Assembly: GCA_010015805.1 (NCBI GenBank)
Contig: ML978123.1
Coordinates: 1,116,001-1,180,000 of the forward strand
Source: Rhizodiscina lignyota
Taxonomy: Eukaryota
Direction: 5' to 3'
DNA: 64,000 bases
The position numbers and the translations under genes are program-made. Position 1 is the stretch's first letter, and each line of letters starts with the position of its first letter. Under the pieces are notes generated by a model that did not search any database, was not told the DNA's origin, and saw only the letters and a list, made by a program, of their open reading frames with translations. Of the stretch, positions 12,795 to 18,826 are shown piece after piece.

Positions 12795-13736
12795 CTACTC
12801 TTGGCTGCAACTAGTTTTGCATGTTGGGCTACCTGCTGGCTTGATGGACAGGTGCTGATGCGGCGCCCCATGACTGATGAAGTTACCATCTCCACCTTCA
12901 GATCTCCGCTCGAGATCATCATCTCTTACAGCTACACGAGGAACATGACGGCTGCCGATGACAATGCCGTTTCTGGCGTCGTCGCCCGCTTCTGCGACAG
13001 GCCTCTTGCGCCTCTCCAAGATCGTGTTCCTGCCCTTCTTTGTTGGCACCTCATCAGCCATACGCGGATGTGGATCAAGCTGGTCTCTCGCGACACGCCA
13101 AGATCCCTTCGGATTGTCGATCGTGTCATCCTCTGCTATATTCTCATTGGATCTCTTGTGCCCCTCTAGCGGCAGCTCCCTCTTCTTCTTCACGGACGGC
13201 CCGTCTGCTGCACGCGGATATGGGTCGATCTCATCTCTCGCAACGCGCCAACCTCCTCTCGGGCCGTCGCTCGTGGCCACCGTTTTCGCAACGGGTCTCT
13301 TGCGCCTCTCTAGCATCGTGTCCCCTCTCTTCCCTATAGATGCCGAGCTTGCTGCACGTGGATGCTGGTCAAGCTCGTCCCTAGCAACGCGCCAAGTTCC
13401 ATGGGGTGAATCGATCGCGTCATCATTCGCCGTATTTACAACAGGTTCCTTGCGCTTCTGCGGCGTCGTTTTCTTCCAGGGTGTCTCAGGCTTCGGGTCG
13501 CGCCGGTCGAAGTTCAACTCTGGACCTGGGTCGGGGACAGGAATAGTGGAAGAAGACGCGTCCTCGGGCTCTACAGGCGGACGTATCGGGCCAGCCACAG
13601 GTCAGCATCGCTCGGGATGTTGTTTGCAGAACGCTTGGATGGGCGTCAAGTTGGAACCAGGTGGTGTGCCTGGGTCCGCACTGGCTGCTGAGAATGTGAG
13701 CAGGGAAGTGAGAGAATAGAGAACTATTGAACGCAT
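12795..13736 (-). CDS. Secreted Kex2-processed repeat protein (KEP)-like precursor interrupted by one in-frame TGA (13604-13602); readthrough, splicing or pseudogene status unresolved
   Basis: ATG 13736 (ACT-ATG) encodes signal peptide MRSIVLYSLTSLLTFSAASA. The ORFs 13602-13784 and 12795-13598 are in the same frame, separated by TGA-CCT. Three ~48-50 aa repeats contain DxPxGxWRVARD and are flanked by KR/RR/RRKR sites. Confidence 0.7.
12990..13430 (-). repeat. Three degenerate coding tandem repeats (~144-150 nt period)
   Basis: Plus-strand cores encoding WRVARD at about 13081-13107, 13231-13256 and 13374-13400. Confidence 0.85.
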
Positions 13737-14484: not shown

Positions 14485-15921
14485 TCACGCTTTGCCCAAG
14501 ACTTCGTCGAGTTTGTTCAACCACCCTTGCAGGTCCTTGACTACCTCCTTCCTGCGTTGTCTCGCCTCGCTCTCGCCTTCGACCTCGATAGCATCCACTT
14601 TGAGCATATATTGACCCATGATCGTCTCGCTTAGCTTCTTATACTCAAAATCTCTCTTTGCCTTGTCCGCTGGTGGGTGTTCGACAAACGTCGAACAGAG
14701 CGGAGCCAGTGTGTGTCGAAACTTCGTATCGAGCACGTTGATCTTGTCGAGGGGCGTCTGTGGGGTAGCGGTGGCAGTTGATGCAGGCGTAGATGTGGTT
14801 GAACGAGGAATCGCAGAGGGAGGAATGAATGTTGACGTTCCAGTTGGAGGAGGTGTAGCATAACCATTTGCCTCGGATTGTCGGCTAGCCGGCTTCTTCT
14901 TCTTGCTCCTGCGCTTCTTGCGCTTCGGCGCGCCGTCTGCGGTACTACACGTATCATCGACACCGTCTACTTCTTCTTCTTCGTCATCGCTCTCGTCTTT
15001 TGACGGAGGGGCGGGAACAGTGTCGTTGCCTATGACGCATAGCAGTTCACTCTCGCGGTCCGATGAGAGACCCTCTTCGCGTGCCAGGCGCATATCGTCC
15101 TTGAGGTTTCGCCCTTTATAGAACAACTTCACCATTTTCGGATCGCTACCCGCCTTTTTCGCTGCTGCTGCACGAATGCCGCCTATTCGGAGCTCTCCGC
15201 GGTCGATCGAGAAGGCTGGAAAGTGGACGATGTATCGCTCTCTCCTGTGTTTGAGGATCAAGACATCCGTCTCTGTATCCTTTCTACTGCTCTCGTAGTC
15301 GCGGCTATGCTTGTGCTTGTGGTGGTGATGTGAGCTTTGCGGTCTTTCTTCACCGTCTTCATCGTCATCATCGCCATGACTCCTCTCAACGGCGTTCCGC
15401 TTCAGGTCTTCGGATGTGATGTAACTGAACGCTCCGTCGGAGACTTCTCCTCCATTCGCTGGTGAGCGGGTGAAGGGAGAAAGACGAGAGGGCCACAAGT
15501 TGCCTCCCCACCGAGACCAGGAGGACATCCTGGTGTTTCTGCGAGTGTGGAGGTTAGAGAGGAAGGAGGTGAGGAGGAATACGGCGAGTAGTGTAGGAAG
15601 GAGAGTTCGTAGGTCGAAGGTCGATAAGGAATCAAGGTAACGCGTGAGGATATTGTTCTCGCTAAGAGATTCGGGTCCGCGGGGTTCAGCTGAAGTGTTG
15701 ATAAATCGTGATAGAGAGGACACTCGTGCGCTTAAGGCGGAGAGGAAATTGGTGGGGCGGGCGTTTGTGGTTATATTGGTGGACTCGAACAGTTGCGTAA
15801 GGCGACGAATCACGGATATGGCCGAGTCAAAGGTCGAATCCTCCTGGCCTGATGGCGGAGGTGCAGGGCTTAGATATTTGGTGACCGCGCTATACAGGCT
15901 GGAGGCGTGTGTCGACGCCAC
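14485..15921 (-). CDS. BAG-family Hsp70 co-chaperone (ubiquitin-like domain plus C-terminal BAG domain); first ATG at 15528, probable upstream GTG start at 15921
   Basis: UBL-like segment (VKLFYKGRNLKDD). BAG domain with FEYKKLSETIMGQYMLKVDAIEVEGESEARQRRKEVVKDLQGWLNKLD. Intronless ORF. Confidence 0.9.
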   Translation of the reverse strand: MASTHASSLYSAVTKYLSPAPPPSGQEDSTFDSAISVIRRLTQLFESTNITTNARPTNFLSALSARVSSLSRFINTSAEPRGPESLSENNILTRYLDSLSTFDLRTLLPTLLAVFLLTSFLSNLHTRRNTRMSSWSRWGGNLWPSRLSPFTRSPANGGEVSDGAFSYITSEDLKRNAVERSHGDDDDEDGEERPQSSHHHHKHKHSRDYESSRKDTETDVLILKHRRERYIVHFPAFSIDRGELRIGGIRAAAAKKAGSDPKMVKLFYKGRNLKDDMRLAREEGLSSDRESELLCVIGNDTVPAPPSKDESDDEEEEVDGVDDTCSTADGAPKRKKRRSKKKKPASRQSEANGYATPPPTGTSTFIPPSAIPRSTTSTPASTATATPQTPLDKINVLDTKFRHTLAPLCSTFVEHPPADKAKRDFEYKKLSETIMGQYMLKVDAIEVEGESEARQRRKEVVKDLQGWLNKLDEVLGKA

Positions 15922-16638
15922 GGTGGAGGGAGATGGAAGAGAGAAAGGGTTGAGTAAGCGTCCGCTGAAGCAGCGGGAATATTCGTGTGCTTGTGACGGA
16001 AGCTATTTAAAGGTGATTGCATGGAGGAAGGCTTTGTGGACTGGCGTAATGTTTGATGACGAAGGAGCGGTGTCTTTGGGCAAAAGTCGCAAAGGGTCTT
16101 CGTTAGTGCGGCGCTGGTTGACGTCGTGCCATCAGCAGCAGTGAAGAGCCCTGAGGCTTGGCGATCAGATCCCGTCTCGCCGAAGCGGCCGATTCCCGAA
16201 TGACTGCCGTCGATCCCCTTTTCGCACGACATATCCGCCTCTAGATTGTTGGGCGCTTTTCGAGCAGTTCAACAACTTCGAATCGATCAAGTACGCGTCA
16301 CAGCGGCTCCATTTGGCACGGAAAATTTGTGTACAGCCGTACGCGGCATATCTCCCATCAGCCTGATGACTACCAACACCATTTTCGATACATTGGACGA
16401 AAAGAAAGCATTATGAAAACAAGTGGAGTAACTTGATAAGTGTGTCCCCAAACAGCAGTCCAGCAGATCCAACGTGAAGAGCCAGGGGACGTCAGCTCCT
16501 CTCGCAACCTCTACCGCATCGTATTCATGACGAAACGCTGTCGTGGCGGCTCATATAGTCGTGGACAAAAGGAAAATAAAAGTGTGGGTGATGCAACAGA
16601 AGTGAAAATGATCAAGCAATCTCAGCCACGCCGTCCGT

Positions 16639-18826
16639 TTACTTCCTCGTCTTTGGCGTAGCCAGCATGTTCAGCCTTGCTATCGTCAGTCCGTTTCCCC
16701 TCTTCTTATCCTTGTCCTTTTCCCTGTGTTTGTCCTGTCGGAACATAGCGAGCCTGCTCGCCGACTTGGTCGGAGTCTTCGCCCTGGTAGCTGCAGTCTT
16801 CTCCTTGTCTGCATCAGTAGCACTCACAGTCGCTCTCATCTTCTTGCTGGGCCGATCCTCGAGGTCTTGACCACGAGCGAACTCGGCCTTGTTCTCCTTC
16901 TCCGACTCCTCATCATCTTCTTGCAAGTCTTCAAGCTTGCGCTTCTTCTGAGGAGAGAGGGGAATTGCGCCAGAACCCGCAGATGTCGGTGGAGTAAAGA
17001 CGTCGCTGTTGCGCACACGCCTGATCGTCGACGCTGCCGTTTGTGCTGCAAAGGATGGCGCACTACCCGCACGGAATGTGAAATCTCCAAAAGTGGAGGA
17101 TGGTGCGGGACCAATTGTCTGCCGACGGTGTTGAAGAGACTTCGGCACCGCTTTTGGACGCGTGGTTGCCTTTGTAGTTGGAAACTCGGCAGACGTTGCA
17201 AGGGAAGGATACTCGACAGTGTTATCACCCGGAGACTTAAGAGAATCCGTAGTCATAAATGCCTCAGTAGACTTGGCAGTGGTCGGTGAAGCTTCTTCGT
17301 CGAGCTGCTTCGTGCTCTCAGTAAACTCAACATGTTTCATGACCGGAGCAGTCGCAGGAGCGGCTTGTGGGAGCATCGACTTGCGCTTTGGAGTCGGCAG
17401 ATGTGTGCCCGCCGCGACTTTAGAAGGATCATCAGAGTAGAGACGAGTTGGTCCTTGTCGAAGGATAGACTTGAGGGAAGGAGATTTCATGAGCTTGGTT
17501 GGTGAAGGAGAAGAACGGTCCGGCTCATTCGACAGCATCTTTGTAGAGATATTCTTGACCGAAGGAGAACGGGCAAGAATTGGAATTGAAGTCTTAGTTT
17601 TGAGAGTCTTCGCACTCTGGCTACGCGCAATGGACGACTTGGTCGGAGTAGTGAGAGTGGAGAGGGGAATCGGAATGCCAGACTTGATACGGTATTTGCC
17701 TGTTGTCTGAGGCGTGTTCGGCTTGTTGTCCATAACATCGGAGCTATCCTGCCAAGAAGCGCGCGCCGTAGAGACGTCAGCACTCTCGCTGTGCTTGACC
17801 CGCTTCGTCGGACTTCGAAGCGATGTGTCGCGCGAAGGAATCGGAGTGAACAAGGTCTTGCCAGGGCCTTGCTTCATCGGCGTATCGAGGTCGGCCTTAG
17901 AGTGAGAGCGTTTCAACGGCTTATTTGGTCGATCAACTGTCATCGGTGCATCGTTGTAGAAGCGGTTTGGATCCGCTCGGAATGAAGATGGGTGATTGGC
18001 GATTGAGTCCATCTTGCCGAACTGCTTCTTGTGCGCGTCACTGAATCGGCCCTTGGGCTTCGCAATTTTACGGCCACCAAGCGTATCAGTCATTCCAAAG
18101 ATTGGCTGGTTCTCTGCTTGTAGGTCTCGAGCTTCCTGCTTCTCTTTGGCTGCAACCATTTTCGCTCGAATCTTTGCTGCTTCTCCACGAGTCTCTTCCA
18201 TGAGGCGACGAGCTTCCGGACTAAGAGCGGATTCAACGGATGGCTGGTGTTGGAAATCAAACTTGAAATCCGGTGAGAGGAAGGATGTTTTCTTGACACT
18301 CTGTGTTGCGCGGGTGGGGGTTGCTTGAGCAACAGCGAGGTCGTCCGTCAACTCACGCGAACACTTCTTGGGAGGTTCAGTTTGTGGTACCATTGGCATG
18401 AATCCGAGCCAGCGAGCCTCTTCGAGAGGTTTTGTAGTCGACTTTTGGTGTTGAGATGGGTGCATCTCACTGGGCGCTGGGAGAATAGACGACTTCGCCT
18501 TTGGTGTCCAAGGTACGAGACCGCCCAGCAGGGACGAGAAGGGATTCTTAGAAGATGTTGGAGGGCGAATCCGACCGCCATCTTTGCCTTTAGTTGGAGT
18601 TGAGATGGCCTGATCCTCCGTTACGGTAGTAAGCTTTGAAGGAGTCGCATTTGGGGTGCTCGCAATCGCGTCGGCACGAAAAGCGCCAGGAGGCTGTCAA
18701 GAATGTCAGTTAGCTACTGATATATTCATCATCTGAGAGCATATAGCAAAGTCATGTATTCATTACGATAGAACGTACTTGCGGTGTGCTGCCCTGCAGC
18801 CGCGACGAACGCCTCGTCGACACCAT
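16639..18826 (-). CDS. Basic, disordered Ser/Thr/Pro-rich conserved fungal protein; candidate NuSAP-like microtubule-associated protein; 1 intron (18694-18778)
   Basis: Exon 1 MVSTRRSSRLQGSTPQ, GTACGT donor, GCTAAC branch site and CAG acceptor join in frame to the 608-aa ORF. Contains block GRFSDAHKKQFGKMDSIANH, a KEN box and many S/T-P-x-K/R sites. The gene model is secure; the function is inferred. Confidence 0.8.

Follow-up and report, generated by a model that had tools for sequence, protein, structure and literature searches.

A Conserved GTG Upstream of the Annotated AUG of a Filamentous Ascomycete BAG Gene as the Proposed Start of a Membrane-Anchored Isoform

Introduction

Human BAG-1 is made from one mRNA as a set of isoforms that arise by alternative initiation and are differently localized, BAG-1L being the longest (PMC8384158). 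BAG-1L starts at a CUG codon whose context has been called sub-optimal (PMC9082881), and BAG-1M and BAG-1S start at downstream AUG codons. Here we describe a BAG gene of the fungus Rhizodiscina lignyota in which the reading frame continues upstream of the annotated AUG to a GTG codon. The gene lies on the minus strand of a 64,000-nucleotide (nt) stretch of contig ML978123.1 (positions 1,116,001 to 1,180,000), which will be referred to as the window.

Membrane-anchored and soluble BAG proteins have been described in yeasts. Schizosaccharomyces pombe Bag102 carries a transmembrane (TM) segment N-terminal to both a ubiquitin-like (UBL) and a BAG domain, and Bag101 is a soluble protein with a UBL and a BAG domain (PMC3907333). 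Saccharomyces cerevisiae Snl1 is an N-terminally anchored BAG protein of the endoplasmic reticulum (ER) as well as the nuclear envelope, and its BAG domain is cytosolic (PMC3962485). In the Pezizomycotina, BcBAG1 of Botrytis cinerea is a 298-aa protein encoded by what has been called a unique BAG gene and has been tied to ER stress and the unfolded protein response (UPR) (PMC6467101, PMC6013550). Non-AUG extensions are also known from other fungal genes. Neurospora crassa cpc-1 has a conserved N-terminal extension that begins at a near-cognate codon flanked by A at -3 and G at +4 (PMC5487733), and peroxisomal isoforms of fungal 6-phosphogluconate dehydrogenase are produced by means of a non-AUG extension (PMC7214817).

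The R. lignyota gene resembles each of these systems in part. It belongs to the same family of UBL plus BAG Hsp70 nucleotide-exchange factors as human BAG-1, and in both cases a near-cognate start is assigned to the longest form; the short 347-aa form is comparable to Bag101 or to human BAG-1S. The likeness to human BAG-1 is one of family and initiation mode, as the human extension consists of a nuclear localization signal and repeats whereas the fungal extension contains a predicted TM helix, and the context of the human CUG is sub-optimal whereas that of the fungal codon is near-optimal. By layout, the long form is like Bag102 and the short form like Bag101, but S. pombe uses two genes with AUG starts whereas one gene is proposed here, and the TM segment of Bag102 lies within the first 31 residues whereas 55-105 residues precede it in the proteins described below. 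Snl1 shares the predicted N-terminal membrane anchor and cytosolic BAG domain; in contrast, it lacks a UBL domain, has its TM segment in residues 1-39, and starts at a single AUG. The conserved near-cognate codon and the purifying selection on the extension are shared with cpc-1 and 6-phosphogluconate dehydrogenase, where the extension is regulatory or a peroxisomal signal whereas here it would be a membrane anchor. BcBAG1 and Aspergillus nidulans BagA belong to the same Pezizomycotina UBL plus BAG family, but the papers treat the short form and their accessible parts mention neither a TM segment nor an upstream start (PMC6467101, PMC6013550).

BAG is not mentioned in the accessible main text of PMC5487733, and no literature on a non-AUG start or a TM isoform of a fungal BAG protein was found in a search whose scope did not extend to subscription journals or to Figures S1/S4 of PMC6467101. 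Dual localization by a non-AUG extension is a known phenomenon; the fungal BAG case and its breadth appear to be new.

The Upstream Reading Frame of the BAG Gene

Taking the comparisons below together, it is quite likely that this one BAG gene and its one mRNA are read from two starts, a GUG giving a membrane-anchored protein of 478 aa and an AUG giving a soluble protein of 347 aa. The features on which this proposal is built are collected in Table 1. Translation from the first ATG yields a product of the annotated size, and the protein on record, P0001, is 347 aa long, 100% identical, and starts at that same ATG. The frame continues open for 131 codons upstream of it.

The two-isoform proposal was first made in a first-pass annotation of the window, and a renewed reading of the sequence agreed with that annotation in its anatomical detail. 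The coordinates and lengths of the open frame back to the GTG were reproduced; the GTG does stand in a strong Kozak context, CCACC-GTG-G, within cctccaccGTGg; the CT-rich tract and the TATA-like box are both present upstream; and no in-frame ATG intervenes between the closing TAG and the GTG. The ATG-free stretch, put at about 490 nt, measures 494 nt, the next ATG in any minus-strand frame being at 16022. The hydrophobic segment followed by basic residues before the Met was recovered as TLLPTLLAVFLLTSFLSNL and then HTRRNTR-M.

Table 1. Features of the BAG gene and its upstream region in the window (nucleotide positions of the window; residues numbered from the GTG).
Feature	Position	Strand	Basis
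Out-of-frame 50-codon open reading frame (ORF) opened by the nearest upstream ATG (16022), overlapping the GTG	15870..16022	minus	
TATA-like TTTAAATA, putative function	16004..16011	minus	Sequence reading only
In-frame TAG closing the frame 28 codons 5' of the GTG	16003..16005	minus	
CT-rich tract, its 3' end being the CCACC context that abuts the GTG	15922..15949	minus	Read directly
Long ORF, 478 aa counted from the GTG	14485..15921	minus	
GTG, proposed non-AUG start of the 478-aa isoform	15919..15921	minus	Read in sequence
N-terminal extension, codons 2-131, no ATG in any frame	15529..15918	minus	
Predicted TM segment TLLPTLLAVFLLTSFLSNL, residues 106-124	15550..15606	minus	Hydropathy, AlphaFold2
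First ATG (Met132), annotated as the start, giving the soluble 347-aa isoform	15526..15528	minus	
UBL domain, residues 219-297	15031..15267	minus	AlphaFold2, Foldseek
BAG domain, residues 394-473	14503..14742	minus	Pfam PF02179
Stop codon of the UBL plus BAG gene	14485..14487	minus	

Conservation of the Extension and Closure of the Frame

A protein search returned 158 relatives, and the figures given for them rest on the best 120 of the 158. Additionally, a scan of metagenome contigs gave 80 related loci. In 59 of the 80, a [G/C]TG-GCN with a purine at -3 lies 46-112 codons 5' of the conserved Met. Five loci have an open extension without that codon (L004, L011, L038, L024, L005), and in the first three of these a CTG-GAT candidate is found 37 codons upstream. 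The contig begins within the extension at two loci (L026, L053), and seven have no extension (L015, L017, L019, L022, L023, L054, L055). Another seven are unclassified: L039, L040, L047 and L048 have no usable body motif, and L037, L059 and L066 are C-terminal fragments. The Met that corresponds to the annotated start is invariant in 53/53 aligned homologues, and the seven extension-less loci start at the same Met.

Named relatives fall in four classes: Dothideomycetes (Pleosporales, Venturiales and others), Leotiomycetes, Lecanoromycetes and, in a search with L069, Sordariomycetes (Sordariales and Diaporthales). Leotiomycete-like loci carry the extension. For the extension-less clade the nearest named protein, from the Dothideomycete Microthyrium, is only 47% identical, and no Eurotiomycete relative is among the matches listed in the protein searches.

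Many of the listed relatives are 420-450 aa long, and the ~85 residues that they have in addition finish with a hydrophobic stretch immediately in front of a conserved M-S-W motif. The called N-termini are uniform: JGI calls begin with V-A-S and Logan/ENA calls with M-A-S. The otherwise identical pairs P0057/P0061 and P0042/P0040 differ solely in the first letter, V (JGI) versus M (Logan), which suggests that the GTG is printed as M by some callers. Models that read further 5' show T/K-V-A-S after unrelated sequence. The expectation that standard annotation would overlook the long form is borne out by the public models, which are split among short forms, models labelled partial that have no Met, and models in which an unrelated upstream peptide with its own Met precedes K/T-V-A-S. 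That automated annotation has trouble here, for want of an ATG to open the conserved frame, is shown by the models labelled partial (P0014, P0023, P0052, P0055, P0153, P0203, P0213 and P0268) and by models fused to neighboring genes (e.g., P0043, P0131, P0213).

The open frame is present in relatives and is closed upstream in the manner seen in the window. When the frame was walked upstream, a stop was met before any ATG in 25/29 loci; of the remaining four, three have a non-conserved ATG 43-71 codons upstream and one runs off the contig. The in-frame stop lies at most 10 codons 5' of the start in 18/51 loci. At L008 it lies 4 codons 5' of the GTG with no AG dinucleotide between them, and therefore no splice acceptor could join an upstream coding exon there. 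These observations bear on the explanation that initiation is canonical, from the ATG of a short upstream exon joined by splicing to the extension. At least one AG is found between stop and start in 49 of the 50 loci with an upstream stop, the AAG that precedes the start in the K-V-A-S lineages could mimic an acceptor, and some NCBI models begin at upstream Met codons. However, the AG positions are not conserved, L008 has none, and the peptides that precede K-V-A-S in the Sordariomycete NCBI models with an upstream Met are unrelated, differing wholly even among three Diaporthe species. A spliced exon also leaves the constant GTG, or its exchange for CTG or ATG, unexplained, and we consider this explanation highly improbable.

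A short upstream ORF (uORF) of 15-30 codons was noted in 10 of the 12 Sordariomycete-like loci (L063, L065, L068, L069, L071-L074, L077, L078). It begins 139-171 nt and ends 66-99 nt 5' of the GTG, and its peptide is alike only between close relatives. This uORF may be conserved in position and may modulate GUG initiation.

The Proposed Near-Cognate Start Codon

The first-pass annotation had proposed looking for a conserved near-cognate start in relatives, and one was found at the same site in the 59 loci above. The codon was examined first in a scan of 29 non-redundant loci in which the sites were chosen by amino-acid motif and not by codon. It is GTG in 25 and CTG in 4 of these loci, and the surrounding nucleotides are nearly fixed: G at +3, G at +4 and C at +5 in 29/29, and A (27/29) or G (2/29) at -3. 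In the wider scans, which admitted only GTG/CTG-GC, 43 of the 49 non-redundant loci (the window included) have GTG and 6 have CTG. As a control, an invariant Val of the protein body is encoded by GTC in 21 loci, GTG in 21, GTT in 3 and GTA in 2, and other Val codons are GTG in 152/587 cases. The Val codons of the control vary, and therefore selection acts on the nucleotides of the start-site codon.

L005 has an ATG aligned to the GTG of its relatives, in a weak context with C at -3 and T at +4 (gcccgcATGt). The site reads NTG with G, C or A in the first position, which is, to judge from these sequences, the behavior of a start codon. An out-of-frame ATG-TGA "start-stop" also lies 67 nt 3' of the L005 ATG (L005:38-107). 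Nucleotide identity is maximal at -9 to +9 (0.81-0.94) in 5/5 groups of related loci, a measure of pairwise global identity that is weak evidence because the alignments are permissive and the background is ~0.6. A hairpin that boosts GUG initiation was considered and dropped, as z-scores ranged from -2.38 to +0.80 with only 1/12 loci below -2.

The identity of the codon is relevant to the possibility that both isoforms are made from two transcription starts, the first 5' of the GTG and the second within the extension, with no leaky scanning. CT-rich tracts can sit near fungal transcription starts, and one adjoins the GTG here; moreover, a short mRNA of this kind would likewise need the extension to be ATG-free, as it would serve as its leader. 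In 50 non-redundant loci, however, the site holds GTG, CTG or a weak ATG and never a strong ATG, and a near-cognate codon in optimal context is the type of start expected to let some ribosomes pass. Five short contigs, which may be transcripts, also run unbroken from the leader through the GTG to the AUG, and no ATG comes earlier in them. We regard two transcription starts as unlikely, and favor the proposal of one mRNA with two translational starts.

Depletion of AUG Upstream of the Annotated Start

No other of the 1125 ATG-to-ATG gaps on the minus strand of the window is as long as the 494-nt gap, and only 2 of the 2196 gaps on both strands are at least 490 nt long. In mononucleotide shuffles of the stretch, the probability of finding no ATG is 0.013. 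The ATG-free stretch of the window is by itself just modestly beyond chance, and it is the comparative data that are decisive. Between the two starts of the 49 non-redundant loci there are 3 ATG in 12,099 nt, with none at all in 46/49 loci. The number expected from shuffles of the same stretches is 104.7, and an equal length after the AUG holds 130. The depletion of AUG predicted for relatives was thus recovered, with 3 observed versus ~105 expected. The exceptions, at L001, L002 and L079, stand out of frame and in weak context; the ORFs that they open are 34, 8 and 8 codons long and stop 86 or 47 nt short of the AUG. These three loci, the sole ones with an ATG inside the extension, are relatives of L005.

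The leader 5' of the near-cognate codon is also poor in ATG. In the five short contigs mentioned above the first ATG on the entire sense strand is the conserved AUG, and the nearest ATG 5' of the near-cognate codon lies at a median of 171 nt in 47 related non-redundant loci and at 101 nt in the window. At the protein level, the extensions of 57 motif-bearing proteins contain 2 Met in 4945 residues and the downstream parts 258 Met in 19,317 residues; both extension Met belong to one fused 741-aa model in which the pattern is misplaced, and the count is partly a product of gene-calling practice, so that the DNA-level analysis was used instead.

Coding selection (see below) on a region that is kept free of AUG in every frame is the pattern to expect where many ribosomes scan on to a downstream AUG that is functional. 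The counts also speak to the possibility that only the GUG-initiated membrane protein is made and that the conserved Met is an internal residue at the membrane boundary. This Met lies inside a conserved MSW(F)SR motif, and its conservation for structural reasons is conceivable. A purely coding region, however, offers no reason for out-of-frame ATG to be scarce, and they are nearly absent before the AUG and common after it (3 versus 130). The extension-less loci, which start exactly at the conserved Met, and the general inefficiency of near-cognate codons (PMC9082881) also count against a membrane protein as the only product, and we hold this to be very unlikely.

Coding Selection and the Predicted Transmembrane Segment

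The extension is under purifying selection as a coding sequence. The ratio of nonsynonymous to synonymous substitution rates (dN/dS) in extensions that are 55-97% identical ranges from 0.08 to 0.75 with a median of 0.27, and is below 1 in 35/35 pairs. For the first 80 codons after the AUG, dN/dS is 0.00-0.10 in 30 pairs, and dS is saturated in the other 5. The extension of the window and that of its closest relative, P0002, are identical at 68/130 positions (52%) with one in-frame gap of 1 aa, and the bodies of the two proteins are identical at 250/345.

In the window, TLLPTLLAVFLLTSFLSNL has a mean Kyte-Doolittle (KD) hydropathy of 1.75 over 19 aa, with a charge of 0 in the 15 aa before it and +4 in the 15 aa after it. 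AlphaFold2 (AF2) places a helix at residues 104-129 (pLDDT ~77-82) that contains this segment, and the rest of the 131-residue extension is modelled as helical with low confidence. A TM segment was likewise expected in relatives, and the hydropathy and charge of 33/33 loci, together with the AF2 helix, agree with this. The most hydrophobic 19-aa window has a mean KD of 1.51-2.13 in all 33 loci tested, its end falling in the span from 19 residues before the conserved Met to 5 residues after it. The charge is -3 to +1 in the 15 residues before the segment and 0 to +5 in the 15 after it. The positive-inside rule predicts that the UBL and BAG domains face the cytosol and that the N-terminus is lumenal. 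N-glycosylation sequons occur in the extension of 17/33 loci at positions that are not conserved save in the Sordariomycete-like group, and they are uninformative for topology. A search of the ESM Atlas with extension residues 1-135 gave no usable match.

These data bear most directly on the view that the upstream region is a leader that is not translated and has its open frame and hydrophobic stretch by accident. Considered in the window alone, an ATG-free stretch of 131 codons in C-rich DNA is just modestly improbable (P ~0.013). The conservation that preserves the frame, dN/dS below 1 in every pair, a TM-grade segment in every locus tested and the invariant context of the start site all stand against an accident. 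As judged from the sequences compared, this view is already contradicted by the comparative data, and we give it next to no credence.

Protein Domains and Predicted Structure

The assignment to the BAG co-chaperone family made in the first-pass annotation holds. Pfam PF02179 matches with a score of 78.2 bits (cutoff 23.4, E = 6.8e-22), and in the AF2 model residues 390-477 form three helices with pLDDT >95. The Pfam ubiquitin match is under its cutoff (14.8 vs 25.4 bits, E = 0.024), and the UBL domain is clear in the AF2 model (pLDDT ~95). A Foldseek search with this domain returned many ubiquitin chains with TMt ~0.8 and a root-mean-square deviation of ~1.5 Å over ~80 aa, and the top match was AtBAG1 bound to HSP70 (4hwi_B). 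On the predicted structure, the protein has the layout of the BAG-1 subfamily with the UBL domain N-terminal to the BAG domain. Binding to the Hsp70 ATPase domain and a role in nucleotide exchange would follow from the domain match.

A His/Lys-rich tract, SSHHHHKHKHS (~15300-15330, minus strand, residues ~197-207), lies in the linker that joins a conserved SPF/FSYIT region to the UBL domain. The closest relative, P0002, has this tract too, L001 and L002 have it in part, and most others lack it.

Proposed Mechanism

In the mechanism proposed here, the gene would be transcribed into an mRNA with an AUG-free leader in which scanning ribosomes first meet the GUG, whose context is ACC-GUG-GC, A standing at -3 and G at +4. 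Some of the ribosomes would initiate at this codon with Met-tRNAi and produce the 478-aa protein. The extra 131 residues would consist of an N-terminal region that is mostly helical and then of one TM helix that acts as a signal anchor. The flanking charge, neutral or negative before the helix and positive after it, would leave the N-terminus in the lumen and the UBL and BAG domains in the cytosol or nucleoplasm. The other ribosomes would scan a further 393 nt without AUG in any frame and initiate at the AUG at the cytosolic end of the helix, seven residues beyond it, to produce the soluble 347-aa UBL plus BAG protein. The net outcome would be the Bag102 and Bag101 layouts from a single gene. 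The comparison of relatives supports this two-isoform interpretation, every comparative test that had been suggested for it having come out in its favor. We infer from the sequences the use of both starts in vivo, the position of the transcription start and the ratio of the isoforms, and in the same way leaky scanning rather than two transcription starts and localization to the ER or nuclear envelope.

Several points weigh against this mechanism. The first group concerns the transcription start. A start 5' of 16022 would put the 50-codon uORF across the GTG; the context of its ATG is weak, with T at -3 and C at +4, and the ORF ends at 15870. This ORF is relevant only if transcription begins 5' of its ATG, which lies 5' of the TATA-like box and so may escape transcription. 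As the TATA-like box is only ~83 nt 5' of the GTG, the leader may be a short one, and with the CT-rich tract adjoining the GTG a transcription start here could fall very near the GTG or even 3' of it.

The second group concerns the comparative evidence. The feature is not universal, the extension being absent in 7/80 loci and the canonical codon missing in 5/80, and the loci are phylogenetically related, so that the counts are of non-independent events. The requirement for GTG/CTG-GC in the wider scans makes the codon tallies partly circular. In-frame ATG are absent between the two starts by definition of the interval, and the out-of-frame ATG make up about two thirds of the expectation. Extension-less loci also have ATG-free leaders, of 196-405 nt, and AUG depletion alone would fit a plain 5' leader as well. 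No common RNA hairpin was found 3' of the GTG when the 81 nt around the start were folded for 12 loci. Lastly, the topology and localization are predictions made solely from hydropathy, charge and analogy.

Neighboring ORFs

The upstream neighbor on the same strand is a 608-aa ORF rich in Ser, Thr and Lys (16639-18465, minus strand). There are ~717 nt between its stop and the GTG, and the promoter and leader of the BAG gene must fit in this space. The ORF list of the window also contains a 267-aa ORF (12795-13598, minus strand) with three units of ~45 residues that carry W-R-V-A-R-D-x-L/I-D-x-x-P-R.

Implications

A bolder and quite tentative extension of this proposal is that in the Pezizomycotina a single gene may have replaced the Bag101/Bag102 pair. 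Start-codon stringency, set by the eIF1/eIF5 balance and by eIF2 phosphorylation under stress, might then act as a rheostat that decides how much of the sole BAG-type Hsp70 exchange factor goes to the ER/nuclear-envelope membrane and how much to the cytosol, and the non-AUG start might be ancestral to the BAG-1 family and shared with the CUG of human BAG-1L.

With this finding, the gene model of a conserved proteostasis gene would be put right in filamentous ascomycetes of at least four classes. Experiments on fungal BAG proteins, as far as described in the accessible parts of the papers, used the short coding sequence or N-terminal tags (GFP-BcBAG1, 298 aa), and such constructs could not reveal a membrane-anchored isoform. 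An overlooked isoform of this kind would be relevant to BAG mutants, whose phenotypes include ER stress and the UPR. As a natural case, the locus would also show how the balance between a membrane-bound and a soluble co-chaperone is set by a near-cognate start, and natural variants (GTG, CTG, a weak ATG and loss of the extension) are ready for comparison.

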